From the NCBI GenBank assembly GCA_015680685.1, contig MNCI01002249.1, forward strand, positions 844,424 through 908,423: 64,000 bases of DNA, written 5' to 3'. This document shows positions 18,238 to 62,889 of this stretch, piece by piece (the first letter of the stretch is position 1; every line of letters starts with the position of its first letter). A model generated the notes under the pieces. That model had not been told where the DNA came from, did not search any database, and worked only from the letters and a program-made list of their open reading frames with translations. The position numbers were made by a program, and so were the translations under genes. Source of the DNA: Gnetum montanum (lineage: Eukaryota; Plantae; Gnetophyta).

Positions 18238-21200
18238 TGTGGACCTTTTGGTGTGTCAAAACATTAAGAAAAATAGAGACAAAGGTTATGTTATGTAGTT
18301 GTTGTGGGTGTAGGACCAAGATGAGATGACAAGGAACACATTGATGTAGACAAAAGGAGAAAGTTTTCCACAAGGTTTCAAGGTCTCATCCACAAAAGGA
18401 AAGCTCAAAGGAAAAGAATTCAAAGAACATGGACAAGCAAAGTCGTCATCATTGATGCACGCAAAAATGCAAGATTATGAAGAGGGAACGAAGAATTCAT
18501 CATGGAAATGAAGAAGAAGAAAGATGTCTTCAAGAAATAGTAGACGTCTTGGCAGAATTGGAAGATGCACAAACAAAGATGTCTCCAAGAAACAATAAAC
18601 GTCTTTTATTAGGCAAAGATGCCTTCACCAGACAAAGACATCTTCACAGAATGTAGGCCAATTTAAAAAAGATGTCTTTCACTAGACAAAGATGTCTTCC
18701 CAGAATGAAGATTTCAGAAAGACATCTTTCCTAGACAAAGACGTCTTACTAAAATAAAAGGCAAATATAGAAAGATGTCTCAAGCACAAAGAAGACATCT
18801 TCCATGACCACTAGCTACCATTAGCTAGTCGTTGCACAAGTTCCAAGATGGATTTGGAAACATGATAGCTATAAAAAGACATCATATGCATTTGGAAATG
18901 TGAAAGCTTATGTGTAATCATTGTCTAATCATTTGTCAATCATTGTAATCATTGTTTCTCTTCATTATATTATCATTTGTCCATTATAAAGTGTGTTGTA
19001 GCTTAAAGTACAAGGATCAACAAACTGAGTTGCATTCCTTCCTTGTATTTGTTCTCCCTTGTTGCCCTATAGGATTGAGGTGCTTCTTACAGGAAGGCAT
19101 CTTGATTGAGCTTGTTGGGATCTTACAAGATTAAGTGGTTGAAGTTGTAGCACAACACTCCTAAGTAGAGCTTAAGATTGTAAATGTTGTGAAAGCTTGG
19201 AAACCACATTCCAAGCCTAATGAGACCTTGCAGAATTGAGTGGTTGGTGTAGTGTCACAACACTCCAGAGTTGGGCTTGAAGATTGTACAAGGTGTGGAC
19301 CCTTCAATCCACATTTGAAAGTAACAAAGTTCTGAGGTGTGCTTATGATCTACCCTCTAAGTGTGGACTACCTAAGTTGGGGAACCATGTTAAATTTGGT
19401 GTATGTGCTTTTTCCAAAGAATTTCAATTTAGGGAACTTATTCATCCCCCCACATTCTAAGCTCAATGATCCACAAGTGGTATTGGAGCCTCGTACTCGT
19501 TTTTGTAATCATCAACTTCAAGAGTGAACAATGGAGGGGACATCTTACACAAAGCCACCTATGTTCAATGGATTCAACTTCACATTTGAAAAGCTAGAAT
19601 GCAAGGATTCTTCGAATCCATAGAGTTTGAAGTGTGGGAGTCAATCCTTGAAGGCTTCACTCTAACTATTGACAACTCCACCGACATTGTCAACCCTTGC
19701 CACAAATGAACATAAGAGGAAAAGGATGAGTTCATGTTTGATTCAAAAGTAAAAAAATTATTTATTTTATGCATTGAATAAATCTAAATTTAATAGAGTA
19801 GCAGGATGTCAAATAGCCAAAGAAATTTGGCAAACTTTAGAAGCTACTTTTGAAGAAACATCTATTATTAAGCAATCGAAATTGTTAGTTTTACAAAGTG
19901 AATACGATAGACTCAAAATGAAAGAAGGTGAGAAAATAAAAAATTATTTTTATAGAGCTAATGATCTTGTTGTAGCTATTAGAGGAACAAGTAAAGATTT
20001 GTCTAAAAGCGATGTCATTGTCAAAATGATCAGAACTCTACAACCAAAGTAGAGACCATAGGTCATGGCTATGGAGGAGATCAAAAATTTCTCAACCTTA
20101 TAATTTGAAGAGTTTCAAAATGCTCCCATTACTTATGAAATGAATCTCACAAGTGAAGGAGTGATCCAAGAAAGACCTATTGCTCTAAAGATTGCATCCA
20201 AGGAGAAGGAGTTCAATGAACATGATGATGATAGCTAAGATGAGATTACCTCTCTCAAGGAAGTTGCAACAATTGCTAACAAGAAGAAACAAGGAGGCAT
20301 CACAACAAAGAACCCAATTTTCTCAAAGGTAGAAAAAGAGGTAGAAATTTTTTAAATTCTAACTTAGATTTTAATTCCATAGAATGTTGGGTTTGTGGAG
20401 GAAGAGGTCATATGACCTTTGAATGTCCTAATGATCTTAGTGATAGCAAGATATAGCCAAAGAATAGATCCAATGATGAGAAACTAAAAAAGACCAACTT
20501 TTATACAAGTTGGAATGATGATGAACAAAGTGAAGAATAAGCATGTAATTCTTCCAAAAATTCACATCTCATATGCATGGTAGTTACAAATGAAATTTCC
20601 TCACATATGGCTGAACAAGATGGTAAGTGTGACAAAAGGTATAGCAAACTTAAAGAAGAAAATTTTCATCTACATCAATTGATTAGGAAGGCAAAGAAAT
20701 TTGTAATTTCTAAATTGGATGCTATTCATGCTAAAGTGAAAGAAGAGATCTTAGACATAAAAAGCTGAGATTCAACAACTAACCTCTTTTAATAATGATT
20801 GCAACAAGGTTCAAGAAGAGGAGACTCCTGAAAAATAGCCAACGAATTTAGAGGAAGCCACACATGAAAATTCAAGCTCAAGCATAGACAAGTTTGATAA
20901 TTTTGATCATAAGGATAATACTTTATTTGTTTGTAAAAATTGTGGTTGTAAGTAAACTCTTAACTATACTCATGATAATCAAAACAAAATTAATGCTTGG
21001 TATTGTCAAAAAGGCTCTGGTAAGGAAATTGTGTAGGTACCAATAAGCAAGAATGAAGAGAAGTGGAGAATTGAAAATGATGTAATAAGTGATCAAAGGT
21101 TTTATCATAAAGAGCATGAATAAATACAAACATCACATATATGATCTAATGAAAGAGAACCAAAGGATGAGAAGGTACTTCATGATAGGGGACCTCATCT

Positions 21201-22897: not shown

Positions 22898-24282
22898 TGT
22901 TGGTGACTATTTGGAATCACCAATGTTGGAGACCTTTGGGATCGATAGTGTTCTTCAAACAAGGTTCAGGTACTTACTAGTCTCTAGCAACACCAAGGCC
23001 CAAATACTTCCAAATAAGCTCAGTAGTTATGAAACGTACTAAACATGTGTGTTTTTCTGTTGTGCATGTTGAAATAGTTGGGTTGTGTATTAAATAGTAA
23101 TCAACTATCATAAAGATGTTTGGCTAACTTTGTCAAATATTGTGAGTTGTTGAAGGTTCCTATTTTGTATAATCACTTAGCCTATATGGTTCTGATAGCA
23201 CACTACTTGTAACAAATAAAATTTTACAAAAAAATTTGAACATAATTTTGCCAATCTACTCCTAATTTACCTCAGAGAGAAAGTTGCACAAAAAAACTAC
23301 AAATAGAGCGAGATTCAATGGACTTAGAAAGAGAATGAAAAGAACAGTAGAATTGTGTGAAATCTGAAATATCTAAGTAAGATAAAGTCACACGAGGAAA
23401 CACTTCACAATAAAGCTATTCCTAAGTCAATAACTACGAATTGTCCAAACTTCCTAAGCTCAACAAGTAATTTCATAAAGATAATCTTATTATACTACAA
23501 AAAACTACTATGTAAACAATAAAGTACAAGTCTCTATTTTGGCTAGTTAATAGTTGTCAACAATTGCATTCAATAGAGCTTTCAAATATCTGACAATTTC
23601 AAGGTTGAAATATTAAAGTAATACACTTTAAAACAATAAAGCTATTTTAGTTTTTTCAAAATACCAACTATTTTTCTAGATCCTTTATGCTCAAAATAGG
23701 TAATATTGTTAAGACAATACTATTAAATTTCTCCTAAAGCTTTTCAACAACATAAGCTCTTCTATGGAAAATCTTAATAGAAGTCTAATATTGTGCAAAA
23801 ATAGAGCTATGAAAGTAACCTAGAGAAAATCCCAAAATTAAATGCCAAGCATGATACTACGTAAACCATTAGCTAAGCAACTAAAAAAAAATGGAAAAGA
23901 ATGAACTCATAGGATTAAAAAGAAGCAACTGAATTGATGTCTTAAGTAAGCCATCTTATAAGTAATTTTCAATTGTCTTTTCCAAATTCTCCCAATCCAC
24001 CTTTTTAACTCTACCCTTGAAGCCCTTTTCTAGTGGCTTTGGGTAGTTACAATAATCATGAAAAGTTGAGGGTATTATAAATACATAGGGAGATTAATTA
24101 ATAACCATCCTAGAAGTTATAACTAATATAGGAAGTTATTGGAAATTTAAGCTATGATGGCTAAGTGTTTTCTTTGTGATGAAAAGCTAAAAATATCATG
24201 AAGTTTTTAATACTAACCATCATAGGAAGTTACAACTTCCATAGAAATAAAAGGAGCCATAGCCAACTATCTTCTTCATATA
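22898..24282 (-). mobile_element. Probable 3' LTR (~22898-23242) and 3' UTR of a retroelement inserted in the SIRE 3' LTR
   Basis: SIRE LTR homology stops exactly at TGTTGG 22898; candidate other terminus TGAACA at 23242; may belong to the Tat-like pol at 28.2-30 kb (inference). Confidence 0.4.
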
Positions 24283-27045
24283 GCAAGTTCGACCCAAGGT
24301 GGAGCAAAACAACCTAGGAGAGGTCGAAGACAAGTTCCTGCCGGACAACATAATGAACAGGAGGTGCATTCATTTAGCATCCATCAAGACGAACCTCCTA
24401 CCAGACGGTCCGGATAGGCAGAAGGAGGAGCTGCTGTGCCTGAACTGGGACAACAACTCACGTTGCCCCCCGAATGTGTTCAGGCCATCCACGCGAAGTC
24501 CACGATTGCTTCGGTAATTGTGGAACTCAACTTCGAATCTTTTGCAGAGTTCGCTCCTGAGGCTGTTAGGGATCACCTTAAAGGGTCTCCCTTCTGGCCT
24601 GTCCTCTCTGAACAAAGTGCCTGGTACTTAGGAGAAACGTACTTGTTTTGGCACAATAAAGAGCAAGGCACCACAGTAAACATCGGTGGTGTGTCAGTAG
24701 ATTTTTCTGCACAGGCGATTTCGGAAGTGTTAAATCTTCCGAATTCAGGCCCCCATGTTGCTCGGTTATCCACCCGATCCGACCCTGATGTGCGAAAGGA
24801 TTGGCTAGAGAAGGCTTATGGCAGAGATAAGGCTTTTGGTGAGCTGACCACGGAGGAGCGAGTCTATTTCAAAATCGGGACTTATCACCTCTTCCCCACA
24901 AAAGGCTTAAAGAGAATATCAACGTATGCGGCAAGAGGATGTGCAGTGTTGATGGGAAAGGTTAACGCTAACCTTCCTCATCTATATTTGACGGAGATCC
25001 TAAGGCGATTCGAAGAACGGAAGACAGGAAAAATGGCACTCCCTTTTCCCTGTCTTATCAGAAAACTGTGCCGTCGGGCAGGTATTCGGGGATATACAAA
25101 TGACGTCCTCCGAAAGGCCCAAAATGCTTCTTATGCTGAATTGTTAAAGGCGCCAGCTCCAAGAAAGAGTACTGGCGAAGAGTTGGGACCAGATGAAGAA
25201 AATGAAGAACAGGTGACTGAAACCCCTGCAACTCAGCTTGCAGGACCCAGTCAACCTCCAGCCACAGGTCCTAGCCAACAACAAGAAGCAGAACCCGGCA
25301 CAGGCCAGGATCAGCCGCCGCCGCAAGACTATAGACCGTCAATGAGCCACTTGAGGGCTATTGCTGAGACGGTCAGTTGGGGAAGTCGTGATGACACCAG
25401 TCTTTTCCGTGTCATCGATGATGCCAGGCAGCCTACAATTTCAATAGATCGCACAAGGGGTGAGTTGTCAGTACAAACAGGAGGAGGGGAAAGTAGATGG
25501 TCACAACAGATTTCTGGACATGCGGCATCTTTTCAAGTGCAATTAGAGACTGGTGAAGGGGCCACAGTGGTGGTCATGCAACACCAGGATGCCGCAGGAG
25601 CAGCTGATGTGGTAACTGACTACATCAAGGAATCTTTTCATGTACCTGTTGTGCCACCGGCAGATCTTTCAGGAGCACAGGATGCTCAAACCATTGCCGG
25701 AACCTCAATGACTCCTGCAGAACATGAGGATGCATTGGACAGATTGCTTCAAACAGGACAAGTTTTAACGTCTCTGTTTGACATCCCTCAGGATGTAACC
25801 GCAATGCAATCAGACCTCATTTCAACCAAGGGGAAACTGGTCATATCCGAAGTAAGGGCTGAACATGCTGAGGCTGAAGTGTAGAAATTACAAGAGCAGC
25901 TCATCGCCTTACAGGCAGCACAGCGGGATCCCTTGCGATTGGTTCCCGCAGACCAGTTAGACAATTTTAAAACCGAGCAATTAACCAAATTAATTACAGA
26001 AAATAAAAAGGTGGCAGAAGAAAAGGAGATGGCCACTTGGGATGCCTCCGCAGCACAGGCGCAAACTCATGTGCATCTTAAGGCACTCAAGGCCTTACAA
26101 GAAAAAAACAAATAGTTGATTGCTGATAACCTTCGGTTGACCTCTGTGGAGAAGCAAAAGAATGTTCTCGATGAGCACTTTCATCGGCTTCGGGAACAAT
26201 TCATTTGAGTCAACCAAGACGTAAGCCGTTTAGCCAGAGAAAATAGAACCCTCTCAATGGAGGAGATGCGCGCTATTCGACAGAAGTCAGCCATCGAAAT
26301 TAGCGCGTGGCAGAATGAGGCTAAATGACACGAGAAGCTGAAGGAGCACTTCCGTGACCAGGTGGGGATGTACAAACAGATCCTGGAAAAGGATATCCTT
26401 ATGGCAAAAGCCCAAATCAACAACATCAGTGCCCAGCACACTGATTGGGGGGCCATATTGGACACTTATGCCTATGCCCACCAGGCGGAAATTAAGAACC
26501 GGGACCTGCAGATCCAAGACTTAACTGAATACATGGAGTTGGCAAATCTTCGGTATGCCAACCTGGCCATGTTAACGGCAGGACGCCTGAGGTCAGAGCT
26601 CGAGCAGCAGGTAGCTTCCACCTACATCAAATATGAAGCAGAGTTTACAGAACAAAAGAAGTTGGCGGAAAAATTAGATGTTGCAAATTCTGAACTTGCG
26701 GTGGTAAAAGAGAGCTACCAAGGGTAGAAAGATGTAGCATCCGACTTGGCTCGACGGCTCACAGAACTTCACGAATATAAAGACAAAGCCAGAGCCTTTG
26801 AAGAGGAACGACGGGTGTTTGCGGCATGGTACGTCAAAGCTAATCAGATGTTCCCGCAACTACCCTGTCCGTGGGAAGTGCCGACTCCATCAAACATTGG
26901 AGTATCAGCATGGACGACACAAGACCCTCGGACCGAAGAGGAGAAGCTCCAGGCTATTCTTTAGTATCATCAATCTTCAAAACTTGGAGCACGTGACAAA
27001 GGGAAAGCACCCATGGAGGAGCCACCGCCACCAGGAACTACATGA
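24283..27045 (+). pseudogene. Athila-like extra (env-position) ORF, young copy, ~920 codons, N-terminus missing
   Basis: One continuous frame broken only by stops at 24415, 25882, 26113, 26206, 26326, 26725 and 26962; plant transposon protein (PF20167-like) pattern GVSVDFSAQAISEVLNLP...LPFPCLIRKLCRRAGI; long coiled-coil C-terminal half. Confidence 0.8.
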
Positions 27046-27182: not shown

Positions 27183-27216
27183 CTCGAGGACGAGTTTTTA
27201 TTCAGTCGTGGGGGTA
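27183..27216 (+). promoter_or_regulatory. Athila-type PPT region
   Basis: CTCGAGGACGAG...GTCGTGGGGGTA immediately before the LTR TGATGA. Confidence 0.75.
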
Positions 27217-28190
27217 TGATGAGACGCGGTTTGCGTCGGCCGCGATATCGCGTACGCGATATCGCGTCCTTCCCTACGATATCGCGTACGCGATATCGCA
27301 GTCCGCCGCCATGTCTATAAATAAGAGGCGGCACTCCCTTGTTTGGGGATCCCAGTTTTAGTGTAGCGAAGCTCTGGCAGTTTGATCCCTCCAGAGTTAG
27401 AATTTTCCCGTGTCTGCCCGCAGTGTGGTGAATGTGATTGTACGGTGTCTTTATTCGAGTGTGCCGTACTTGGACACGCACATGACCGGCAATAAAGATC
27501 GAGATTACTTCATCATTGCAGCATTCACTTAGTTTATTTATTTGTTATTTATTTAATGTTATTTATTGCTTTCATAGCGCGGTGTGAGTACGACTTAACT
27601 ACGAGCATCTACGGGTGTGTACGGCTAGTTAAGGAATCGGTTACTCATCGCGATTAGTTTCTCACCCTTAAACTCCTAGAAGCGGAACGAGTACGACTTG
27701 ATTACGAGCATTTAAGTGTGACTGCTTGGTAGCCCAGTGGTGTAGCTAGGGGGATCTACGCTTGGTAACCCAGTGGCGTATTTGGGGTCTGCGCTTGGTA
27801 ATCCCAGTGGCGTACCTAGGCCTATGCTTGGTAGTCCCAGTGGCAGTCGTGCATGAAGTCCAAGATGTGTACGGTTGATCAAGGAATCGGTTGCTCGTCG
27901 CACTTAGGCTAGATTAGATTTTCTTACCCTTTTTCCTCTTAGCTTAGATTAGTTAACATTATTTTCCATTGCCATCAGGAGTAGCGTTAGAATTAGAATA
28001 CATCATACACCTCATCTAGACTAAACCATACGTGACATATGCAAAACTAGTCTAGATGGGAAGATAGCGAACTGCGACCTAAGGCTAACTATCTAGGTGC
28101 CACAACTAGTCCATCTGCGGAGTTCGACCGGATCACGCGTGCGATGCTCGTTTCGTATGGTTGAGTGTAGGGGTACCTCGCCACTCATCA
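27217..28190 (+). mobile_element. Athila-like 3' LTR, young and CpG-intact (copy A)
   Basis: TGATGA...TCATCA termini; CTATAAATA at ~27315; homologous to five other LTR copies in the window. Confidence 0.92.
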
Positions 28191-36013: not shown

Positions 36014-36897
36014 TGATGAATCATGGTTTGCTACGTGCTGATATCAGACCCCTGATATTAGGTACAAGATATCAAGTCTGATGAGTCCCGATATCGGACC
36101 CCCGATATCGTAGCCTAGTTAGCGATATTAGATACGTGATATCGTGGTTCCCGTGTTAGCCTATAAATACACAATTGGGCGCACAAGAAAGTCATAGGAA
36201 AAGTTAGTGTTAGAGTAGAGTCTTTTTGTTCATTTTTTAGTTCTTCTCAACTTTTTTTCCCCAGTGCATGCTTACAGTGTGATGATTGTAATTGTACAAG
36301 ACCTTTATTCAAGTGTGACGTACTTGGACATGCACATGATCAGAAATAAAGATCGAGATTACTTCATCATTGCAACATTCACTTAGTTTAATTATATAAT
36401 TTTTATTCATTGCTTTCTTACTTAATACTTCTTTACCCTCAACTCCTATCCCTGTTAGTAAATGTGAAATGGGTACGACTTAATCATGAGCATTTAAGTG
36501 TGACTACTTGGTATCCTAGTAGCGTACCTAGGATATGCACTTGGTAATCCCAGTAGTAGTCATACACGAGGTCCAAGATGTGTACGGATGATTAAGGGTG
36601 GATGCTCATCACACTTAGGCTAGCTTAGACTCTCTTCACCCTTTCCCTTTTAGGTTGATCAAAGTTATTTCCATTACCTCTAGGAGTAGCACTAGTTTAA
36701 GACCACATCATACACCTCACTTTGGACTAAACCATATGTGACAAAGCAAATACTAGTCCAAGTGGGAAGATAGCAAACTGTGATCAACGAGTAACTATCT
36801 AGATACCACAACTAGCCTATCTACGAAGTTCAACCAGATCATGTGTGAAACACTCATATTCATATAGTTGAGTGTAGGGGTAGCCCGCCACTCATCA
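36014..36897 (+). mobile_element. Athila-like solo LTR inserted in the pol of B
   Basis: TGATGA...TCATCA; perfect 5-bp TSD ATGCT on both sides. Confidence 0.93.
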
Positions 36898-39800: not shown

Positions 39801-41839
39801 AAGGCCCCCTTGTTTTGGATCTAGCTCTCTCCTTATGTTGGTTGCTTGCTAAGGTTGAACATAACTAATAAAACATGTGTATATGAATCCTATGATATTG
39901 TATCTATGAAATTAGAGTTACGATATGGTAACTCTGCATACATCATTGTAGATGTGATGTAGTGGGCCATGGTCATGCCTATAAATACCAACCCACTGTT
40001 GCATAAAAAAAAAAAACTTTTAGCCAACACTTAGCAAAATTTTTATAGTTTATTTTTGTGACTTAGAGTTAGAGTTAGAGTGAATGCCCGTAGTTTGGTG
40101 AGCAATAGTTATACGAAATCTTTATTCAAGTGGATTGTTGCTAGACACAATTTATGAATAGAAGTAAACATCAAGATTTTTTTTCATCATTGCATCATCT
40201 CACCTAGCTTAATTTTTACTTTTCATCATGTTTACTTGCATTAAGTTATTTACATTTTCTAAGTTCTTTTACATTCCAATGTCTCTTAGTAAGATGGAAT
40301 AAGTATGATTAGTTTCGAGCATAAAGTGTAACTTTTTGGTAACCTAGTATTGACTTTGCTTGGTTCACTTAGTAGTGAAATCACTTGGTAATGCCACTAA
40401 CTATTATATCAAGCCATAATGTGTACGGAAAACAATGAATGGTTGCTTATTGCGAATAGGATAGAATAGCTTTATGTTTTCATTGCACTTAGACATAGAA
40501 TTTACAATCATTTTTACCATGTTGGTACTTAGTGTAATTCGAGTGAAATAAAATCAATATATCATATATCTCACTAAGAGTTAAACCATATAATTTTTAC
40601 TTTGCCAACTCTATGTGAGAAGCAAACTATCATAAACTAAACATCAACTACTAGTATACTTATATTGTCCATCCACAAAGTATGAGCTGATTGCACATAA
40701 AGACTTGTGACTTGTATGGTTAAGTGTTAGAATACCTAAATACTCATCATTTATGTCATTGCAAGGGATGTGCCAATGTTTTCTAGTTAGTTGATTTTAC
40801 CAAGATTATTGTATTAAGCTTCATAAAATATAATTTTCATACTTACATTAATTTTCTCAAAAAGTATACACTTAAGTGTCAAACACTTAACATGGCTTCT
40901 ACAACTAAGGAAAAATCTCCACTTGCTAATGAATTTAATGAAAGTCATGACAAGGATTATAATGAAGAAGATTGAAGTACACTGATTTAAACCAAAATTT
41001 CCTATGCTTACACTCATCCTTATTATCCTGACTTTACATTTATTTTTCATCCAGATGAACAACTCAGATCGAGAGATTTACAAGGCAACATTATCTTGCC
41101 ATAGAAAAGTTCTACACCATCAATGCTTCAAGTAGGTCTTATCAGGATAAACCCTGGCCATGTACAAGAAGGCTACTACATCATCAAACACATGACTAGG
41201 TCATACTAGCCAACTGAGGCTTAGGCAAGAACCGATGCCATCATAAAGCTAAGGTATGAACAAGAAAAATGGAACAAATCACCTTAAATAGTTGTTATAG
41301 AAGAAAAGGAAGATGCTATATTCCAAACTAAGAAAATCTATTAGACTCATGGGTCTCATTCTCAAACACCAATCATTCATATTAAAGATCCTATTAAGAT
41401 AAAATTGCATTTAGCTCTTATAGAAACCCCTAGAAGAAATAAGGAAGACTCCAGACTTAGGAGGAGATCAAGGGCCAAGACCTCTATTGAATCTAAAAGT
41501 GATGAATTAAGGAGTTACCAAAGAAAAACCAACTCACACCATTCTTCAACTCCTTCATCTTCTTCCTCACATTCATCTTCAGATTCTAACAATAAAGAAT
41601 GAAGACTGAGGGATCATGATGGGGAAAGAAAAAGAAACCATGAGAGATGTACATATAGAAGAAGGAATCTTGATGAAGAGGAAGATAATCATGATGAAAG
41701 AAGAGAAAGGATTACACATGAGGAGAGAGAGCATCATGAGCATTTGAGGGATCATTACTACACCAGAACTTATGAACCCAAAGACTATGAACAATCATTA
41801 TTGGCCACTTGAAATATGATGAATATTAGGGAAGCTATG

Positions 41840-42898
41840 TATTGGTCTTTTGGTATGTCAAAACCTTAAGAAAAATGGAGAACATAGGATGTTTGTCTGA
41901 TGTTGTGTTTATAGGATAAGAACTCGAATTGAGATAAGAAGGTTTGAGAAAGCTTAAGAACATGGACAAGGAATAAAGAATTCATCATGAAAAGGAAGGT
42001 GAAGAAAGACGTCTTTGAGAAATAGTAGATGTCTTGGCAGGATTGAAGGATGCATAGACAAAGATGTCTCTTAAAAACAACAAACATCTTTCATCAGGAA
42101 AATACATCTTCACTAAACAAAGATGTCTTCTCAAAATACAGACTAGTTTCAAAAAGACGTCTTTCCCCATACAAAGATGTCTTCTCAGAATTAAGGCAAA
42201 TATAAAAAGACATCTCAAGCATGAAGAAGACGTCTTCCATGACCATTAACTATTGTTAGCTAGTTGTTGCATGAGTTCTAAGATGGATTTGGAAACATGG
42301 TGGCTAAAAGAAGACATAATTCTCATTGGGAAAAGTACAAGCTCTTGTACAATCACTATGAAATTATTTGTCAATCATTGTAATCATTATTGTTCCTCAT
42401 TGTATTATCCTTTGTCCATTGTAAAGTGTGTTGTACTTCAAAGTACAAGGATCAAGAAACTAAGTTACATTCATCCCTTGTAAGTGTTGTTCTCCCTTAA
42501 TGCCTTGTGGGGTTGATGTGATTCCTGCAAGAAGGCATCTTGATTAAGCTTGTTAGGATCCTATAAGATTGAATGGTTATGTAGTGTCATAACACTCTAA
42601 AGTAGAGCTCAAGATTGTAAAGGTTGTACAAGCCTAAGCTTGTTGGAACCTTGCAGGGTTGAGTGATTGGTGCAACATCACAACACTCTGGAGTGAAGCT
42701 TAGATCTTGTATAGGGTGTGGTACCCTTCAAACCACAATTTGGAAGGAATAAAGTCTAAAGGTGTGGTTGTGAACTACCCTCCAAGTGTGGACTACCCAA
42801 GTTGGGGAACCATGTTAAAATTGGTGTGCATCTTATGTAAAAGAGTTTCAAATTGGAGAACTTATTCATCCCACCCCCTCTAAGTTCAACTATCCACA
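41840..42898 (+). mobile_element. SIRE-type solo LTR in the gag of C
   Basis: Homologous to 18238-19475; ends TCCACA; perfect TSD CTATG; gag reads REAM|YIPTRHVRDSRIK across it. Confidence 0.92.
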
Positions 42899-43672: not shown

Positions 43673-46600
43673 TGATGAGCAGCAAGCTATCCCTAATCTC
43701 AACCATACGAATCATAAGTGTTCACGCACGATCTGGTCAAATTCCATGGATGGGACTAGTTGTGGCATCTAGATCATTATGCCTTAATCACAGTTTGCTG
43801 TCTTCCCACTTGGACTAGTGATAGCTTTGTCATGTATGGTTTAGTCCAAAGTGAGGCATATGAGTCTTGATGTTGTGTTGGCCTTATGCTACTCCTATTG
43901 ATAATAAAGAAATCAATTATTTAAACAAATTAACAATGGAAAGTAAATTCTAAACTAGCCTACGAGTGATGAGTGTTAGTTCTTAGCTTGTCATACACAT
44001 CCTAAACCCATGCATCTACTCCTGGGGTTACCAAGTGCTATACTACTAGGCGAACCAAGTAATAATGCTACTAGGGTTACCAAGCAAATATGTGTTTACG
44101 CTTGAAATTGGTCATGCTCATTTTGCCAATTCATTAATATGCATGGAAATGTAAATATTAACTAAGTACATGAAAAGTAAATTGCATGGAAAATAAATTT
44201 GATATAAGTCAAAGTGCTACAATGAATAAGAATTAATATTGATCTTCATAGAATGTGTCTAGGTACATTGCCACTCAAATAAGATGTTGTACAACTAAAT
44301 TAGATCCACACTGTAGGCACTCACTAACTATTCTCTAAGACTACAGAATAAAACTGCAAGAGTTCGAATACTCTATTAACTAACTTATGCCCAAACCATG
44401 AGCCGAACCACTATATCTATAAGCCAGCATACATGTCACGATATTAGATATTTGACATCACTTCTTGGGCCTCGATATCAGAGCTAGATAAAATAAGATT
44501 CATCATAACCCCACAACTGAATGAAAACTCATCCTTGAGTGAAAAAAAGAAGGAACAAATCCCTTACAAAATATTGGGAAGGTATGGGATTATTGACTGA
44601 CGCTAACTACTAACTGACTCTAACTGCCGCATTATAAAATTTTATTCAAGTGGATGCATACAAAATCGTAAAGTGACAGAAAAACTGGATAGACATTGAA
44701 GATTAAAAAATTTGCAAAGCTTTTGAAAAATCTGTTAAAGATGATTCTACTTGTTGCCACTAATGATGGCAGACTTTCAACCTTGATTGTTATGTCGATG
44801 CTTCTCTAGTTATGCAAAACATTCTTGAAGGATGGATTGAAATTTCTTCTCATCATCCCATGGATCTAGCAAACATGTGATTTTTGAGCTACTATCTTAT
44901 ATGTGCTACAATTTGTCCATAGGCATATCCTTTGTTGTACTCCTCTTGGCTTCATTTTTGTACCTGGTAAAAGACCTTCTTCCTTAGGTGTTTCTTTTAG
45001 CATCACTTGTAGTCACCAAAGAATCAACATTAGGTTTGGTAAATTTTTCCTTAATAATCAATCCTTTTTGGATTCCTTAGTTTGTGTTTAGGCTATGGGG
45101 TAACTAAAATCATCAAGTTGTTCAGATTATTTTGATTGATTACTATTAGTTACCATGATGTTCGAAAATAACATGTTGGAAAAATTTCAAAAATTTCAAA
45201 GTAAGCATCCCTAGCCCCCATGACTAATAAGCATAACTCCAAAAGCACACAAGTTTTCAAAAAATTGAAACCAAAGGTCTAATTCATAAGATTATGAAGA
45301 AATATTAATGGATATGAAAATAGAAAAGTAGGAAAAATTAATGAAATAAATGAGAAGTAGTCTCAAAATTATGCATAAATTTAGAGAAAGCATCACTAAT
45401 GATCTTGAAGATCTCAAGGTTAGTTCAAAGCCATGATCAACAAAAGTTATGCAAGTGGGTCTTTCCTGAAGTAGGCTCTTGTCGTAATGCCCTTGCATAA
45501 CCACTTCTATAGATGTTCGTGGGCATCCAAGAAGTTAAATGTAGACCATGCCTTTTTTCCAAGCAACATACATCTATCATGGTTAGGATGTTGCACTATA
45601 CTATAAAAAAACCAAAAGGCTCATAATCGCATGCAGCAATGAGGTGAATAATGGGATGAGAAGGAATTGCAGAGATTGGGATGTAAGGTACTTGACCATG
45701 TCCAGAATAGGTTGTGAAAAATGTAATTAAAATGATTAGCATACCTATCTTTCCAAGTTCAGACTAAGTCCATACCATGAATAGTGACCTCGCATTGATG
45801 TATTTCTTCTTGCCGATCACCATGAGTTGACAACCACCTCAAGGAACAATCATCACTCCAAAAGGGAAGAAAATAGAAGAAGGAAGGGCCTTAGTTAGAG
45901 GGATGCCTTTAGGCATGGGTAACATGTCTTTCAAGCCCCATAACTAGTGCTTGTAGCCCATTATTGTGTCTAAGGGGTGTGCTTTGAATTTCTATTATTA
46001 TTATTTTTCTTTTTCTTCTCTTTTTTTTTAATTTTTTTTTTCTAATTTTTGTTTTGTTTTGTTTTTTTTTTTTTGAATTTTTGGATGGGAACCACACCAT
46101 GCAAATACATAGCTTCCTATTTATTAGTTGATGAAGGAGTGATGATACATTCATTGAGGAGTCATAAACCACACGAAGAAAGTCAAGAAGAGAACCCAAC
46201 AAGTCCCCTTGAGGTCACACCCTTTGCCATTCCCACTTGGTCATTCCCTCTTTCTTCAAGGTACAATGATCATTGATGAATTTTAGTTTAGAAAACGAAG
46301 AATCAAATTGTTTAGGTGATAAAGACCCTTTATTCAAAGAACTAGAGGGATGGATGAGGTGGTTTCATTGCTTTACACAATTACTTACCCAATCATCTTG
46401 ATAACATAGCACAAAAACCCAACACATAGCGTTGACTTCTACATCATGACTAGCAATATTATTAATGAAAGCATAAAAAGAAACATTCATTAAACATAAA
46501 GAAAATGACTCAAGAAAAGAAAAAAATATAAATAAAAAAATATTAAGAAATGGAAAACATATGAAGAATCATAAAATTTTGAAAGAAATAGGAAAATGTT

Positions 46601-49600
46601 AAAAAATTGTAAAACAAAAAAGGTGAAAAATACATATTTGTTCTTGAACCAGGATGGAGCATACAACTAATTTGATGGCCATGCATTCGATAGATGGATT
46701 GTATAATCCCTTGGTTATACACCATCAGTTTCCCATCTATCACCATTACTAATTTAATTAGTCGTGTGGTAGCACATACAACATTGGTGATAGTCTCGTT
46801 TGGATCATTCAAAGATGTATCTTCATCTGGACTTGAAGGTTTTGGGGGATCTAGATGTATTTGCTTCTTCTTCTTGATTTTTTATTTTAATTCCTGGGTC
46901 TCCATGTTTAATATCCTCTTCTAGTGCATAATCAAAGTGTAAGATATCTGTGTCTAAGTCCTTGGTTTAGTTCATTTTCTTAAGTCTAGAACTAATAAGC
47001 AAATCAATTACCTCCATGCATTTGTAAAATAATTTTATATTCTCATTTTCAACCCATTTGGTATCTTCTGGTTTAGTGGCTACTACGTAGATTGGTTTTT
47101 ACTCACACACTTGCTCCTGAACTTTATTGTGGGCTATGTTAATATTTTGAATTTCTAGCCCAGAACTGCACCCTTTACTATTAGTAGTGATGCATGGATT
47201 CTTCTATCTCTTCATTGTGCTAGATCCATCTCTTTTTTTAGGTGTTGGAGTAATGACAAATGTTGGCCCTTATGTAGGATTGGAAGACATTGGTCATGGA
47301 AGGAAGATTGTTGCACTTGATTGACATTGTGCTAGTTTGGATGAGTTAGTAGGTCCATGAGTGTTATGCTTATGTGTGGGAACCATCCTAAAGAAAGGAC
47401 GTTTCCAAGATTGTGGTGGAGATCTATTGGCATTATCATTTTTGTGTATGTTCGTAGCACAAATGGCATTCTATTGTTAATGTTGTGGTGCTAAGCCTTC
47501 CTGTGTTGCTGGTGGTGACATATGGTAGAGGGAAGTAGAAGAATATTGAAAATATGACAAAGGTTGAGAGGTGTGAGGTGGTGATCTCATGGAAGATGTT
47601 TCGGGATGATGATATTTGGGAGAGTGGTAGTAGTGATTTGAGGTAGTGGAAGTAGAACTAGTCAAGGAAATAGGTTGTTGAACATAATATCTATATGGGT
47701 CTGGCTAACAATAAGGGTAGTGTTGGTTTGATGATGGCCTCCCCCATGACTATGGGCTTTTCCACTGTAGTTGATGGTAGTTTTGAGGCTGATAAGAAGT
47801 CCCATTAGGATAGTACAGTTGGTTGTAAGATTGTCTATAATTACCTTATGAGTGAGGTAACTTCCTAGGAATTTGCTTTTGTACGAACTTGGGATTCAAT
47901 GCAAAATCCCAATACTTATGTAGATGTAACATGACTGGGCAATAACCCCTTGGATGGTCATATATATAGATGTCAGAGCCATCATCTTTTTTGGTGGTTG
48001 AGTCTATAGCCTCTTCTTCTACAATCATTTGTCCTTTTTGCCAATCAATGTTATTAACTGTCTCTTGGTCCCTTTTCCTCCTTTTGTTGTGGTCACTTGA
48101 TTTGTTTTGAATTACTCTCTACTCTATGATTTCTACACAGTTGTAACTTTCTCATTTATCCATTTCAACATCTTATCTAGCTTTGCTTCAAGCTCATCGA
48201 TAGACTTTTGTTGTAGCAAGGTTTGTTGTGAAGTCACCTCATCAAGAGTTGCCTATTTTTCCTTATCATAGATGTGGACCCTTTTCTTTTGAAGAGTTTG
48301 ATCCCAATTATTTTCCTCTACATTCTTTTGTTTACATAGCTATCCTTCTTCTTTTGCCACCCACTCAATTAGCCTTTATATCTAATGGGCTTTCAGTTCA
48401 TATAACTAACCTTGGGCATGAATCCCAAGGGTCTCCCTCATTTCATTATGAAGCCCATCTATGATGTGGAAAAGTTGCTCTTTTTGAGAGAAACCATGGC
48501 CTGGGCATTTATTCAATAGAGAATAGTATTTATTAAGGGCCATATCCAAGGGTTCATGTTGTTCTTACTTCCATTCTTGGATTGGTTTCCTTAGGTTGGA
48601 CACCCTCACATAGGTTTGGTATTTCTCATTGAAAAGTTCCAACATTGTGGACCATCGATGGATTGAGTTTGGTTTCAATGATTTATACCATACTTTGGCT
48701 TTATCTATTGGTGTCCTAGGAAAGAGCTTAAGATTTTTCCATATACTTTTGATGTTTTGTAAGACACAAGCATCATGGAAGGCTTGTAAATGATGTTGTG
48801 GATCAGAATCATAGCCTCCCACAAATTTAGAGATATTATTCATATCAAGCCTTTTTATGCAACTTTCCCTATGATGCCTGTGGGGTATTTTAACTATCTC
48901 CATGATTTGTAGCATGCTCTTAGTAAGCAACAAGGGTTTACTGTCGTCAAACATGTCATGGTGAAAATTTCTAGCTCTATTCATCTTATTGTGATGATTT
49001 TGTTTATGTTCATTTTGATGTCTTTCATTTTTCCTGTGGTTTTAGTTTCTATTTATATTTCGACCCCATAGTGAAGCTTTATCTTTATACCTACATTCAT
49101 GTTCATCAGAACTAGACGTTGAAGAGGAAGAGGAAGATGAGAAACTAGGAGAATTTCCATGGCCTCTATAGTATTCCCCATGGTTCCTTGATTTATCTTT
49201 TCTAGGTGTTGAGGAGGTCCCAGGCCTTAAGGCCTTCCCTAGTCTAGGACTAACTTCATCTTCTCTAGGATTGTTTGCCTTAGGTGAGTGTAGTCCTTGA
49301 GTGTAGTCAGGGTGGTTATGGACATATGAAACCCCCACATAAGATTGGTCACTCCAATTTTCTTTAGTATATATCTCGTGAGTTCTCCAATGAATGTTCT
49401 CTCCATACAATGCATCATCACTTCCTTATGAAAGAGACATTGTTGTTGGTTTATGATGTGTGTGATCTAGTATTTTCTAAAAGATAAAAAGTTAATGCAT
49501 TTACAATGATTGTGTATAATATATAATCTAGATAACTAGCACCATCCCTAGCAATGGGGCCAATGATGAGCAACAAGGTATCCCTACATCCAACCATACG

Positions 49601-50416
49601 AATCACAAGTGTTCATGCATGATCCAATTGAATTCCATGGATGGGACTAGTTGTGGCATCTAGATTGTTATGCTTGCCTTGATTGTAGTTTGTTGTCTTC
49701 CAACTTGGACCAGTGGTGGCTTTGTCACGTATGGTTTAGTCCAAAGTAAGGCATATGAGTCTTAATGTTTCATTGGCATTATGCTAGTCCTATCGATAAT
49801 AAAGAAATCAATTTAAACTAATTAACAATGGAAAGTAAAGTCTAAACTAGCCTACATGTGAGGAGTGTTTGTTCTAAGCATTCCATACACATCCTGAACT
49901 CATGGATCCACTACTGGGATTACCAAGCAGTATGCTACTAGGCAAACCAATCAATAATGTTGCTAGGATTACTAAGTGAATACATGTTTATGCTCAAAAT
50001 TGGTCATGCTTATCTCACCAATTCATTAATATGCATGGAAATGTAAATATTAAGTACATGAAAAGTAAATTACATGGAAAGTAAATGTAATCTAAGTTAA
50101 ATTGTTGTAATGAATAAGAACCAATCTTGATCTTATTGCTGTTCATGAAATGCGGTTAAGTACATTGCCACTCGAATAAGATGTCATATAGTTGACTCAA
50201 ATCCACATTGTGGGCACTCACTGATTATTCTCTAAGACTACAGAATAAAACTACAAGAGTTAGACTACTCTATTAACTAGCTTATGCCCAAACCATGTAC
50301 TTAAGTGTTATATTTAAAGGCTGGCACACATGGCACAATATTGGATATCTGACATTGCTTTGTGTACCTTGATATTGGGTGTCTAATATCAGAGCCAGAA
50401 AAAATATGGTTCATCA
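43673..50416 (-). mobile_element. Complete non-autonomous Athila-like element D
   Basis: LTRs 49564-50416 (5') and 43673-44505 (3'); TSD TAGAT; PBS TGGCCCCATTGCTAGGGA at 49545-49562; PPT ~44507-44515; decayed gag ~47250-49420; no RT or INT. Confidence 0.93.
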
Positions 50417-53281: not shown

Positions 53282-54173
53282 TGTTGAGTGGCGAGGTACC
53301 CCTACACTCAACCATATGAATACGAGCGTAGCATGAGTGATCCGGTTGAACTCCGCAAACGGACTAGTTGTGGCACCTAGATAGTTGTCCTTAGGTTGCA
53401 GTTTGCTGTCTTCCCACCTAGACTAGTGTTATATTTTTCACGTATGGTTTAGTCTAGATGAGGTGTATGATATGTTCCTAATTCTAACGCTACTCCTAAG
53501 GGCAATGGAAAATAATATTAACTAAGCTAAGCTAAGAGGAAAAGCGTAAGCGAATCTAATCTAGCCTAAGTGCGACGAGCAACTAATTCCTTGATCAACC
53601 GTACACATCTTGGACCTCATGCACGACTACCACTGGGATTACCAAGCGTAGATCCTAGGTACACCACTGGGCTACCAAGTAGTCACACTTAAATGCTCGT
53701 AATCAAGTCATACTCGTTCCGCGTTCTAAGAGTTTAAGGGTGAGAGAGAGAAAATAGTAAATAACATTAAAATAAATAAACAAAGTGACTACTGCAATGA
53801 TGAAGTAATCTCAATCTTTATTGCTGGTCATGTGCGTGTCCAAGTATGTCACACTCGAATAAAGAATACCGTACAATTACATTCACCACACTGCGGATAG
53901 ACACGGGAAAATAAACTATCTCTAGAGTGACCAAACTGCCAGAGCTTCGCTACTTCTAACTCCTAATACTTGAAACTGGGAAAGCTACCTCTTATTTATA
54001 GAAATTGCGGTGCACTACGATATCACGTACACGATATTGTAGGGAAGATGCGATATCACGTACGCAATATCGCGGCTGCGATATCACGGCCGCTGCGATA
54101 TCGCAGCTACTGATACAACAGGGCTATGATATCACGGTTGCGATATCATAGCCAGCAAATTCATGACTCATCA
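53282..54173 (-). mobile_element. Athila-like solo LTR (close to copy A) in the RNase H of C
   Basis: TGTTGA...TCATCA; TSD ATAAT/ACAAT (one transition). Confidence 0.92.
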
Positions 54174-57877: not shown

Positions 57878-59540
57878 ATGCTTCCTAAAAGACCTGTAGT
57901 AGAAGGACCATCATAACAAAGGGGAAAGAGACCTAGAGGAACATGACAAGCTAGAGAACAAACTTCACATGCATAGCAAGAGGCCTAATTCTACAGTATC
58001 CATGAACCAACACCTGCGATAGAATAATCTACATAGGTAGAAGTTAATGCATTGCCTGCTTAGAAGCAAGAATAGCACCTTACATTATCAAAGGAATATC
58101 TCCAAGCAATCCAAGAGAAGTCTATCATGTCTACTATCATAATGAAACCAAACTTTGGACCATTCATGGAGTTTGCCCTTGCTAATGTTCTTGAAAAACT
58201 CCAAGACTCTCCTTTATGATCCACCATTTCAAACAATGGTGAATGATACTTGGGAGAAGTTTATCAATTTTGGAAGAACAAGTAGGATCATGCTATTGTG
58301 AAAATAGAGGGAATCACAATGCCATACTCTGTTGAAGCAATAGCCAAGGCATTGAACCTTCCAAACATCAAAGCTAACATCATTTAAATCTCTTCAAGGT
58401 CCAACAAATAGGCAAGAAAGCTATGGTTACAAAGGGCCTATGGGACTATTAAAAAGGAATACAATGGATTGATCATAGTTGAGAAGACTTACATCAAGAT
58501 TGAGACCTACCATTTCATCCCAGCAAAAGATTGAATAGAATTTTTACCTATGCTGCTAGAGGAAGAGCTATTCTAATGTGTAAATTCCATACCAACATGA
58601 CCCATCTACTAATGTGAAAATTCTAATGTGAAAATTCAAACAAGATTTATGGAAGAGAAGGTAGGGAAACTTACTCTACCATTCCCTCACCTTATCAAAA
58701 ACTTGTGCTAATAAGTAGGAATTCTGGGTTAAACCAATGATATTTTTCATAAAGCCCAAAATGCCTATATGGCAAAATTTCAAAAGTAGTGTTGCCAAAG
58801 AAAGACCAAGTGGAAAAACTAGTAGAAACTGAAGGAGTAGTTGGGTTTACACCACCAAGCAATGTTCTAGCCATAGGAATAGAGCAAGTAGGACCCAGTG
58901 GATCAACACCAGCAACCGATAGACCAAGGCCAAGTGCTCCTTTGGCATAAAAAGATTCCAAACCCTTACTAACACATTTGCAACAAATTGGTAAAACAAT
59001 AATTTGGGAAAGTAGAGAAGTTGCAAGTATGTACAGGATAAGGAACAATTCAACCAAGCCTACCATATTAATAGGACTTGCAAGTGGTTAAATCTCATTG
59101 TAGACAGGAAAAGTTGAGGAATGGGCATAACAAATATCTAGGAATGTCACATCTTTGTAAGTGATATTAGAAATAAAAGAAGGAGCCATAGCGATGATGA
59201 TGCAACACTAGGATATAGTAGGAATAATTGATGTTATCACAGATCATATCAAAGAGTCTTTTAATATTCCCATTATGCCACTGACTGATCTTACTAGAGA
59301 GAAATATGTAGAAAAAATAGACAAAACATCAATGACCCCAAAAAAGCATTAAGATATCTTAGACCAATTGCTATAGACTAGGAAAGTGATGAAAAATATC
59401 TTTGATATCCTAAGTGATATCATTGCAGTGCAATCAAAAATAATTTCAACTAAGGGTAAGCTAGTCATGACTGAGATCAAATTACAACATGTTAAAAATG
59501 AAGTGCAAAGGCTAGAAAAGAAATTGATTGCATTTACCAT
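57878..59540 (+). pseudogene. Extra-ORF copy of C, truncated in the coiled coil
   Basis: MLPKRPVVEGPS...; homologous to 24.3-25.9 kb (IFDILSDIIAVQSKIISTKGKLVMTE). Confidence 0.82.
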
Positions 59541-60208: not shown

Positions 60209-62889
60209 ATGGCCCTAAAGAGGACACTAGAAGAAGGACCCTCACAACTGGAAAACAAAAGACCAAGAGGTTGAGGAAGAGGTCACATTGGAGAACAAAC
60301 TCCACCAACAAAGCATGCAGAGTAAGAAGCCTAGTCTTTTAATATCCATCACCAAACACCTACTACTGAATACTTTGCCCAAGTAGAGGTTGAAGCACCA
60401 CAAGGACAGAACCTTACGCTATCACCTGAATGTCTTCAAGCCATCTAAGAAAAGTCAATCATGTCCATAGTTATTGTGGAATTCAATTTTGGTCCTTTTA
60501 TGGAGTTTTCACTAGAGACTGTTAGAACACAACTCCAATCATCTCCCTGGTGGCCTACCTTGTCAACAAGTGGAGAATGGTACTTAGGGGAAATCCTTCA
60601 ATTTTGATAAAACAAGCAAGCTAATTCCATGGTAAAGATAAAAGGAGTTTCCATGTCATATTTAGTGGAGGTGATAGTCAAAGTCCTCAATTTACCAAAT
60701 GAAGGGGCTAATGTAACATAGATATACACATGGTCTGATACTGATGTAGAGAGATTGTGGCTACACTGAGCCTATGGCAAGAAGGATAAGGAATATAGTG
60801 AGCTAACTACAAAGGAAAAGATATATTTCAAAATTGGCACCTATCATCTATTCCCAACCAAAAGGCTTAACAGGATTTCAACTTATGTGGCTAGAGGAAG
60901 CACCATATTGATGGAAAACTTAAATGTCAATATTGTCCATCTGTACTTTCTCAAAATCCAAAGATGATTTGAAGAGAAGAAGGTGGGGAAGCCAATAGTA
61001 CCATTCCCCTACCTGATCAGAAAGTTGTGCAAACAAGCAGACATACTTGGTTATACAAACAATGTTTTGAGGATAGATTAAAACACCTCATTTGTTGAGA
61101 TTTCAAAACCCATGCGTCCAAAGAAGGATCAATTGGAGAAATAGGTAGGTACTGAGGGAGCTATAGGCTCAAATCCTATTGACACCATTCAAGCTTCTAG
61201 CCAACAATAACAAGAAAGACTTAGTAGCTAGCCACCAGTTGATCGGCAACAAAAACAACAAGTTCCACCGTTGCCTCCATAGGATTATCAACCTTCTATG
61301 AGCCATCTATAGCAAATTGTAGATTCAATAAGCTAGGAACAAGAGAAGGGGCCAATCTCTATAAGGTCATAGAAGATGCAATCAGATCCACCATCTCAAC
61401 AGATCCTACTAATGGGCAGATATCATTGCATTTAGCAGGAGGGGATACTTGGTCACAAAAGATCTCAGGGAACGTTGCATCATTCCAATTAATGTTGGAA
61501 ACTAGAGAAGGAGCCATAGTGGTGGTCATGGAACATCAAGATCTAATAGGAACACTAAAGTGATTACTAATCACATGAAGGAGTCCTTCAATGTTCTTAT
61601 TGTGCCACTAGTCAATATCTCTAGAGTGTGACGCTCAAATGTTGGTTGGAACGTCAATGACTTTAGCTAAACATGAAGAAAACTTAGATAGGCTATTGAA
61701 GATGAGGCAAGCTATGCAACATCTTTTTGATATCCCTAGTGATATCATTGCAGTCCAATTTAAACTATTAGCCACCAAAGAAAAGTTTGTTATGGCCAAG
61801 ACTAGGGCAGAGCATATCGAGAATGAAGTCTAGAAACTACAAGAAGAGCTCATGACCTTAAGGACAGAAAGAAGAGATCCCATGTGATTCATGACACCTA
61901 ACCAACTTGATTAGTTTTAGATAGACCATGTAAATCATCTCATTGACCATAATTTGAAGATGGAGTGAGAGAAGGAGAAAGCGGTATAAGATGCCTCAGT
62001 GACAAAAGCACAAATGTATGTACATGCCAAGGCACTCACTACTCTAGAGGAAGAGAATAAACAATTAGCTATAGACAATGTTGAGTTCACTAACATTGAG
62101 TGCCAAAAGAACATTGTCGAAGAAAGCATCCAACAACTTCGAGAACAATTAGTTCAAGTCAACTAAGATACGAGTCGCTTGGCCTATGAGAGCAGGATCC
62201 TATCAATGGAAGATGTTCACACAATGAGATAGGTATATACAATTGAGATCAGCATGTGGTAGAATGAGGCTAAGAAGCATGGATGACACAAAGAGCATTT
62301 TTGAGATAAGGTGGACATGTACAAGCAGATTAATGAGAAAGAAATTTAGATGGATAAAGCCAAGATAAAGTCCATTTTAGTGCAAAATCCAAATTGGTAA
62401 TCAATCTTGGATAGTCTAGCCCATGTCCACCAAGTAGAAATTAAAAATAAAGACTTGCAGATTGATGATCTCATAGAGTACATGAGGTTAGTGAATCTAC
62501 GCTATGCTAACCTGGCCATGTTAACTATAGGTGGGTCCAAGAATGAATTAGAATAGCAAGTAGTGATCGTGTATGTTATGTATGAGAAAGAATTGGGTAA
62601 CAGAAAAGATGCACCTTAAAAGTTACACATGGAAAAATTAGAATTAGAAGTTGTTAAGGCTGGCTAACAAGGCTATAAAGATGTTGTAGCTAATCTAGCT
62701 CACAGAATGTTTGACTATTAGGAATCAAGAAAAATAGCCAGGTTATTTGAAGAAGAACGATGGTAGTTTGTAGCCTAGTATGTAAAGGAAAATCAAATGT
62801 TCTCACAACTACCATGCCCATGGGATGTACTAGCTCCATCACACATCACTCAACAAGGATGGACAATACAAAATCCTAGGATATGACAA
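60209..62889 (+). pseudogene. Near full-length decayed extra-ORF copy
   Basis: ttgtag|ATG start; collinear with the young copy through YFKIGTYHLFP, NLRYANLAMLT and FSQLPCPWDV; cut off at TGTTGA 62890. Confidence 0.85.

Follow-up and report, generated by a model that had tools for sequence, protein, structure and literature searches.

Positions 27217 to 28190 form an LTR of an apparently Athila-type element, and two copies of a motif within it very probably represent an RNA structure under selection on the sense strand (probability close to 0.9). The motif is a sharply bounded, very abundant and transcribed candidate RNA structure for Athila LTRs, and is apparently an undescribed RNA of a large Athila-type family. 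Its make-up is modular: a constant core with outer helices is completed either by an insert, with helix P4 and two to four hairpins, or by a tetraloop, and at least one copy is present per LTR. An earlier note on this DNA had proposed a cis-acting structured RNA in an Athila-like family. That proposal is supported by masked covariation, sense-strand bias, transcription, a primer-binding site (PBS) and an extra ORF; one of its options, that of a small ribozyme, is not supported.

The LTRs and their element

The 64-kb window, by which we mean the whole stretch of DNA analyzed, is AT-rich and dense in repeats, with decayed Ty3/gypsy coding pieces. Using LTR A as the query in BLAST and nhmmer searches of the window, we obtained six related Athila-type LTRs, A to F (Table 1), with seven motif copies: two in LTR A and one in each of LTRs B to F. 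The earlier note had named four copies, and these were located where it had placed them, together with all the stems that it described; its count missed the three copies on the minus strand (D, E and F). The CpG observed/expected ratio of LTR A is 1.20, so that this LTR is little decayed, and the ratios of LTRs D and E are 0.38 and 0.19, respectively. LTR F is 89% identical to LTR A across the 3' 400 nt and lacks the short motif copy, which within the window is found in LTR A only.

Table 1. Positions of the LTRs, motif copies and associated features in the window.
Feature	Position	Strand	Remarks
Extra 3' ORF	24418..25884	+	Transposase_32 (PF20167) / ATHILA-ORF-like; frame extends both ways with in-frame stops
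Polypurine-tract-like run	27208..27214	+	just 5' of LTR A; LTR D preceded by the same context
LTR A	27217..28190	+	3' LTR of truncated Athila-type element; TG...CA ends
TATA box	27316..27323	+	present or recognizable in 6/6 LTRs
AATAAA, candidate poly(A) signal	27491..27496	+	matched or nearly so in 5/6 LTRs; putative role
Motif copy A1, short form	27578..27652	+	LTR A
P2	27594-27601 with 27626-27633	+	encloses conserved core
Tetraloop UACG	27610..27613	+	C-G closed; often CACG elsewhere in the family
Motif copy A2, long form	27682..27901	+	LTR A; 151-nt insert
A2 insert domain	27716..27852	+	P4 helix enclosing four hairpin units
P4	27716-27725 with 27843-27852	+	A2 insert
A2 hairpin units CTTGG-loop-CCYAG	27725-27840	+	four units
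Separate conserved hairpin	28011..28060	+	holds candidate RNA 3' end 28053; putative role
LTR B, solo	36014-36897	+	target-site duplication ATGCT
Motif copy B	36463..36622	+	solo LTR B
LTR C	about 39881-40749	+	followed by decayed PBS-like sequence
Motif copy C	40293..40463	+	LTR C
LTR D, decayed	43673-44505	-	3' LTR of E-D element
Motif copy D	43956..44127	-	LTR D
LTR E, decayed	49564-50416	-	5' LTR; then Athila-type PBS and broken gag
Motif copy E	49848..50019	-	LTR E
LTR F, solo	53282-54173	-	5-bp target duplication with one mismatch
Motif copy F	53562..53723	-	solo LTR F

Assignment of the element to the Athila type (Ty3/gypsy, OTA) is supported by the sequences of the PBS and of the extra 3' ORF. 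After LTR E, the decayed PBS matches the Athila type TGGCGCCGTTGCC at 10 of 13 letters, the motif for comparison being taken from the accessible part of 10.64898/2026.03.20.713144, and in four runs the loose ends after 28190 are of the same Athila PBS type. An extra ORF between pol and the 3' LTR is given as an Athila feature in PMC6317226 (accessible part). Here the ORF matches PF20167 with an E value of 1e-13; the nearest Atlas clusters, at 0.90, are PF20167 and a PF03078 cluster (17% of members), which serve as a lead only. The interior of the E-D element consists of broken gag only, and no pol is linked to the motif-bearing LTRs within the window.

Several further features accompany the LTRs and the ORF. 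The frame of the extra ORF spans about 930 codons (24250-27045) with several in-frame stops. Near the start it has a stretch that is basic and rich in Arg, its C-terminal half is coiled-coil-like, and decayed homologues lie at 57897-59442 and 60228-62846. A palindromic CG-rich tandem repeat in U3 (27241-27299 and 54049-54108) folds more strongly than any other part of LTR A, whichever strand is taken (z -4.5 and -5.9); because this fold is symmetric, a DNA-level promoter element is more likely. A second conserved domain occupies the LTR 3' end (27995-28190), with a column identity of 78% and 7 of 38 predicted pairs changing on both sides; the hairpin that holds the candidate RNA end 28053 belongs to it. 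Elsewhere, a second, unrelated family of LTR-like repeats (18244-19475 and 41956-42898), which contain internal tandem repeats of their own, has no match to the motif, and a tandem array of about six copies of a 38-bp unit is located at 430-735.

Shared fold, covariation and strand bias

The outer part of the shared fold comprises P0, a 2-nt bulge, P1, a second 2-nt bulge, P1b, a GAA bulge and P2 (8 bp). Further inward lie a 2-nt bulge, two C-G pairs, a 1x3 loop (A x GUA) and P3, which is capped by the tetraloop in the short form and by an insert of 82-151 nt in the long forms. The fold described earlier for A1, closed by a c-UACG-g loop, was reproduced (MFE -25.8, z -2.3), and its energy was equalled in 6 of 200 shuffles; likewise, the insert of some 150 nt said to replace the A2 tetraloop measures 151 nt between the arm limits chosen. 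Single-sequence folding is less distinctive for the long copies (z -1.4, -2.2 and -0.4, and 0.0 for copy F, whose MFE structure is a different fold), and for A1 alone the minus strand folds equally well by z-score. RNAalifold recovers the shared fold unaided, with the P3 register shifted by two, and adds P4 in the insert. P3 has two possible registers, and its pair probability over both, from predicted thermodynamics, is 0.02 and 0.14 in A2 and F. A model search of the window found only the seven training copies, the 11 additional rows at E 0.8-4.9 being noise.

A1 alone is a 75-nt fold-back of about 28 pairs, a size that could suit a Dicer-like substrate giving rise to small RNAs. We regard such a role as highly improbable, since five bulges or loops leave no uninterrupted stretch of the A1 helix longer than 8 bp, the insert is branched in most lineages, and no MIR family was found over the motif.

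Across 38 pairs in the seven copies, pairing is kept in 90.0% of 249 cells, and double-sided changes occur in 16 of the 38 pairs. Neither the pairing level nor the double-change count was reached in any of 500 shuffles, a control that ignores relatedness, and slid controls gave 28-45% pairing. The seven related copies perhaps amount to four or five lineages that are independent, and a cell does not equal an event; covariation exceeds chance, with few independent events among the copies. The earlier note had read compensatory stems here, subject to masking of CG/CHG sites. Among the window copies the covariation persists outside such sites, where 9 of the 16 double changes lie; two of the double changes are A-U/U-A swaps. 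In P2, five of the eight pairs change on both sides among the window copies, none of them at CG/CHG.

In a substitution-scatter test, the A1 fold was kept fixed and the substitutions of the other copies were scattered across the paired sites, with gapped pairs omitted. In these comparisons, which are not mutually independent, the paired sites of A2, F and B have 10, 13 and 13 changes, none of which breaks a pair, versus 2.5-2.8 broken pairs expected (P 0.012, 0.008 and 0.012), and copy C has 3 broken pairs versus 5.9 expected (P 0.036). D and E do no better than chance (P 0.27 and 0.18). P4 passes two of seven comparisons, both against E (P 0.02-0.03), and the other five are not significant. 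For A1, A2, B and C, the best partner of the 5' arm is the 3' arm of the same copy; the 5' arm of F pairs about equally well with the 3' arm of A2.

The deviations from pairing are asymmetric between strands. In A1, A2, B, C and F there are 15 G·U and 2 A·C deviations in columns that are predominantly Watson-Crick, or 13 and 2 when A2 and F are counted once (P 0.004); the decayed copies D and E have 8 G·U and 9 A·C. A G·U bias in the kept copies and an even count in D and E would be expected if selection, but not post-insertion decay, acts on the sense single strand, and the excess of G·U over A·C thus points to the sense RNA strand.

These data bear on the possibility that the motif was selected or formed as DNA, or that local inverted duplication followed by methylation decay produced it neutrally. 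Most of the double changes are transitions, and transitions on both sides always re-pair. Moreover, 7 of the 16 double changes touch CG/CHG, the single-sequence z-scores are modest, and the DNA-type palindrome of U3 folds better than the motif. The possibility is nevertheless very unlikely, considering the excess of G·U over A·C, for which the even counts of the decayed copies serve as an internal control, the double changes that are transversions or fall in CHH contexts, and the family-wide asymmetry of the sense strand.

This asymmetry is seen in sequencing runs mapped to the short copy, namely three DNA runs (three organism labels, two studies) and one RNA run. Of 24 run entries, 20 contain the stretch, none of them recorded as RNA, and X13, X16 and X17 are presumed RNA runs. 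The DNA runs contain 3191, 3407 and 2774 contigs mapping to the short copy, with a summed depth in the millions that is not a copy number, and 2% of the RNA run yielded 304 reads on it. The short form is common in the family and not unique to LTR A. Joints reveal tandem short copies in the RNA reads as well as in the DNA contigs; in one contig the arms are connected through five other letters, which represents a second minimal form.

On the short copy 26 variants are listed, 12 of which reach 7% in all three DNA runs; all 12 are transitions. Ten of them sit at paired sites, and eight of the ten preserve pairing on the sense strand alone. The remaining two are accompanied by partner changes of matching RNA-read count (167/258 with 169/230, and 58/259 with 51/230), family-wide counts being unphased. 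At 27599, C>T reaches 44-59%, versus 0.3-0.4% for G>A at its partner 27628 in the same CHH context. In DNA contigs, T>C at 27629 (21-34%) exceeds A>G at its partner 27598 (10-18%), the depth of the 3' arm being doubled. The P3 pair 27608-27615 appears as U-A, U·G and, by counts, C-G. No variant is listed at 4% in the core (27616-27626), where mapping seeds can inflate the apparent invariance.

Core, loop and insert in relation to known RNAs

The core had been described earlier as invariant. Its strands GAGCAT and GTGTACGG are indeed unchanged in the four copies named at the time and in F, but D and E depart from them, and across the family C frequently replaces the U of GAGCAU (at 14-24% of depth in the three DNA runs and in 170 of 241 RNA reads). 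Much of the core consists of the predicted P3 helix, together with the small 1x3 loop and the 2-nt bulge, and not of a large open loop; the core holds 11 of the 25 columns that are invariant among the window copies.

The UNCG cap, which had been put forward as a sign of function, is present in A1, yet the loop is better described as YACG than as strictly UNCG: CACG accounts for 15-22% in the DNA runs and for 146 of 241 RNA reads. Both UACG and CACG agree by sequence with the YNMG type (Y-N-M-G closed by C-G), which includes cUUCGg and uCACGg (PMC2346598, accessible part). As evidence the cap weighs less than was claimed, as it is absent in six of the seven window copies and its letters also occur in the long insert. 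Seven letters spanning the A1 loop recur in the inserts of A2 and F (six occurrences in the window), suggesting that the short form probably arose by deletion from the long form, with the loop kept as YACG.

Within P4, the CTTGG-loop-CCYAG units number two in B and F, three in C, D and E, and four in A2. The copies thereby offer a natural deletion series of zero to four insert units, in single and tandem arrangement. The unit hairpins retain a pyrimidine mismatch and a loop starting with U, one in LTR D being a UUCG loop, and the CTTGG of a unit could alternatively pair with CCAAG just 5' of the 3' core strand (A2, B and F). The unit was also considered as a Pol III A-box, which one unit of four fits, and presumably bears some likeness to the plant SRP Alu domain; both are leads without Rfam support.

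The motif had been reported as no known family, and the covariance-model check proposed with that statement agrees: Rfam gave no match in the window at gathering score or at E<=1, and the eight weak matches at E<=10, all but one of them from the U3 palindrome, do not overlap the motif. No tRNA gene was found in the window, and no 5S, tRNA or SRP match. Nor were there motif relatives outside this plant group in metagenome, viral and phage sequences. A pattern scan of metagenome contigs returned 39 matches, about the chance level, none with the stems or with a BLAST or model match. Viral contigs gave no match to the two-arm pattern or to the LTR-end/PBS pattern, and at least 120 stretches matched a loose core pattern, 80 of which scored 0 with the model. 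The viral contigs contained no ORF relatives and phage blastn found none; one ORF search was empty and another returned two unnamed fragments. No description of RNA structure in Athila LTRs was found in the literature, mostly non-subscription papers, and no element of this kind is described in the accessible parts of 10.1101/2024.04.02.587720 and PMC6317226.

A new class of small self-cleaving ribozyme, in which the short copy would be the minimal active form, would explain the small conserved core, the covarying flanks, the dispensable insert and the tandem copies; natural minimal forms, moreover, arose at least twice, including the contig with arms joined by five other letters. Hammerhead ribozymes have CUGANGA and GAAA boxes at a three-way junction, and CTGA.GA is absent from both strands of all six motif regions. 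The loop B words of the hairpin ribozyme are likewise absent, without an Rfam match. The 3' strand with UACGG resembles, as we judge by eye, domain 5 of group II introns, and the partner word of the AGC triad is absent in all copies. Twister-sister-like ribozymes have a 5x6 internal loop with the scissile CA in the longer strand (PMC11620745, accessible part), whereas the motif core has a 1x3 loop and a 2-nt bulge and, if opened, becomes a 3x7 loop with no CA in the longer strand. No Rfam ribozyme matches.

The RNA reads bear on the same point. In the raw-read run some 230-260 RNA reads pass through the core, read ends do not accumulate within the motif, and the 'go-back' joint that could denote circular RNA is present in DNA too, hence a tandem duplication. 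Cleavage of the 5' leader would, in addition, presumably remove R from the genome of a coding element. The ribozyme option of the earlier note is thus left with neither a known core nor clustered read ends. Retrozymes do give a precedent for ribozymes in plant LTRs (PMC4918200 and PMC6765202, accessible parts), but a ribozyme remains most doubtful here. The same holds for its variant in which the insert is a dispensable accessory and tandem copies process LTR transcripts outside the conditions of one raw-read run.

Transcription, proposed function and known systems

The raw-read run has 3632 reads between 27100 and 28300. The strand skew is 2.6-12.6-fold from 27264 to 28042 and 1.1-1.9-fold beyond, and under the usual library orientation, assumed here, in which the antisense strand is read by the first mate, the more abundant strand is the sense one. 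In one run 43 molecules end at 28053, the sole pile-up of ends, and the skew drops there from about 4-fold to about 1-fold. Position 28053 is a YA dinucleotide in all six LTRs and a candidate poly(A) site. An RNA end at 28053 would place the motif in a long R; use of the AATAAA at 27491 would place it in U5. The skewed coverage is limited to the LTR part 27264-28053 and may reflect an abundant LTR-only transcript of about 700 nt. A splice acceptor, considered because of YTAG before each copy, was discarded, as none of the 15 joints listed (the best 15 of 48) has GT..AG ends.

We propose, at about even odds and from the combined analysis, that the motif is a cis-acting RNA domain in R/U5 that docks an element-encoded protein, either Gag or the extra-ORF protein. 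The bulged stem would fold in the sense RNA of the element, and its helices would give the conserved core, with its G·U pair, A x GUA loop, 2-nt bulge and GAA bulge, a shape suited to a protein. This protein would most simply be Gag, for genome selection and packaging, or the product of the extra 3' ORF, in a RexRE-like manner. Repeated copies and repeated insert units may raise binding avidity, and diverged stems would let every tandem copy fold on itself. An analogy is offered by retroviral R-U5 regions, which contain protein-bound stem-loops (PMC12789967 and PMC2664473, accessible parts).

Alternatively, the stem could serve RNA processing or translation as an architectural feature, with no dedicated protein of the element involved, compacting a 700-850-nt R/U5 leader and tuning the choice of poly(A) site between the 5' and 3' LTRs. 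The HIV polyA and TAR hairpins and the stem-loops of long R regions are precedents (PMC2664473, PMC2645353 and PMC3694450, accessible parts). The ends at 28053, the drop in skew there and the YA shared by all LTRs within a conserved hairpin agree with such a role, as does the conserved AATAAA 560 nt upstream, with the motif in between. Even so, about 220 nt remain between AATAAA and 28053 after both copies are folded out, invariant bulge and loop letters and repeated units are needless for a spacer, and the pile-up is confined to one place in one run. The shunt of pararetroviruses requires a short ORF ending 5-10 nt before the stem. Such an ORF is present in none of the seven copies, the nearest (13 codons, copy F only) ending 3 nt before it, so that no conserved short ORF supports ribosome shunting. 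Overall, an architectural role is possible but rather unlikely.

Quite improbable is a role in the RNA-RNA steps of replication (genome dimerization or first strand transfer), for which either the inverted repeat, long but imperfect, or the small hairpins of the units would be used. An RNA end at 28053 would place the motif in R, at both ends of the RNA, and arms from different copies can cross-pair. However, the copies share no self-complementary loop, the unit loops vary, GACG is absent on the sense strand of every copy, and divergence of the stems makes each copy pair preferentially with itself.

Large plant genomes are filled with Athila-type elements. The motif, with its natural deletion series, makes several matters testable with a 75-nt RNA: packaging selection in plant Ty3/gypsy elements, the position of the RNA end, and the role of the Athila extra ORF protein. 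The surprise is limited, as structured RNA in R/U5 is expected from the analogy with retroviruses.

Comparison with known systems reveals partial similarities. The c-UACG-g and c-CACG-g loops fit the YNMG tetraloops, but cap the short form only and do not define the motif. Retroviral packaging signals are composed of several stem-loops, as in HIV-1 Psi and the GACG hairpins of MoMLV. In them, as in the motif, structured modules recur within the 5' leader of the RNA of a retroelement; the motif, by contrast, lies upstream of the PBS inside the LTR, has no GACG kissing loops and carries its YACG loop in the short form only. Cassandra TRIM LTRs, with their 5S-derived domain, also contain a conserved RNA fold inside a plant LTR (PMC12486564, accessible part), whereas the motif has no 5S, tRNA or SRP match and lies downstream of a TATA-type promoter. 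Retrozymes have structured RNA within a plant Ty3/gypsy-type LTR (PMC4918200, accessible part), but their LTRs measure about 350 bp, versus about 850-970 bp here; the motif, in turn, has no hammerhead core, its reads bear no sign of cleavage or circles, and the element here is coding.

The closest likeness is to HTLV-1 RexRE, the HIV TAR and polyA hairpins and the HML4 R stem-loop, which are also long stem-loops in the transcribed part of an LTR. They further share a distant AATAAA on one side and a candidate RNA end on the other, and the element has an ORF in addition to gag-pol (PMC2664473 and PMC12789967, accessible parts). They differ from the motif in that it has no sequence or Rfam match, belongs to a plant Ty3/gypsy host and comes in modular copies with an insert; the docked protein is only putative here, and folding leaves AATAAA far from the candidate end. 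In its presumed working, the motif thus appears to resemble the stem-loops of retroviral R regions most, yet it is not a member of their family.
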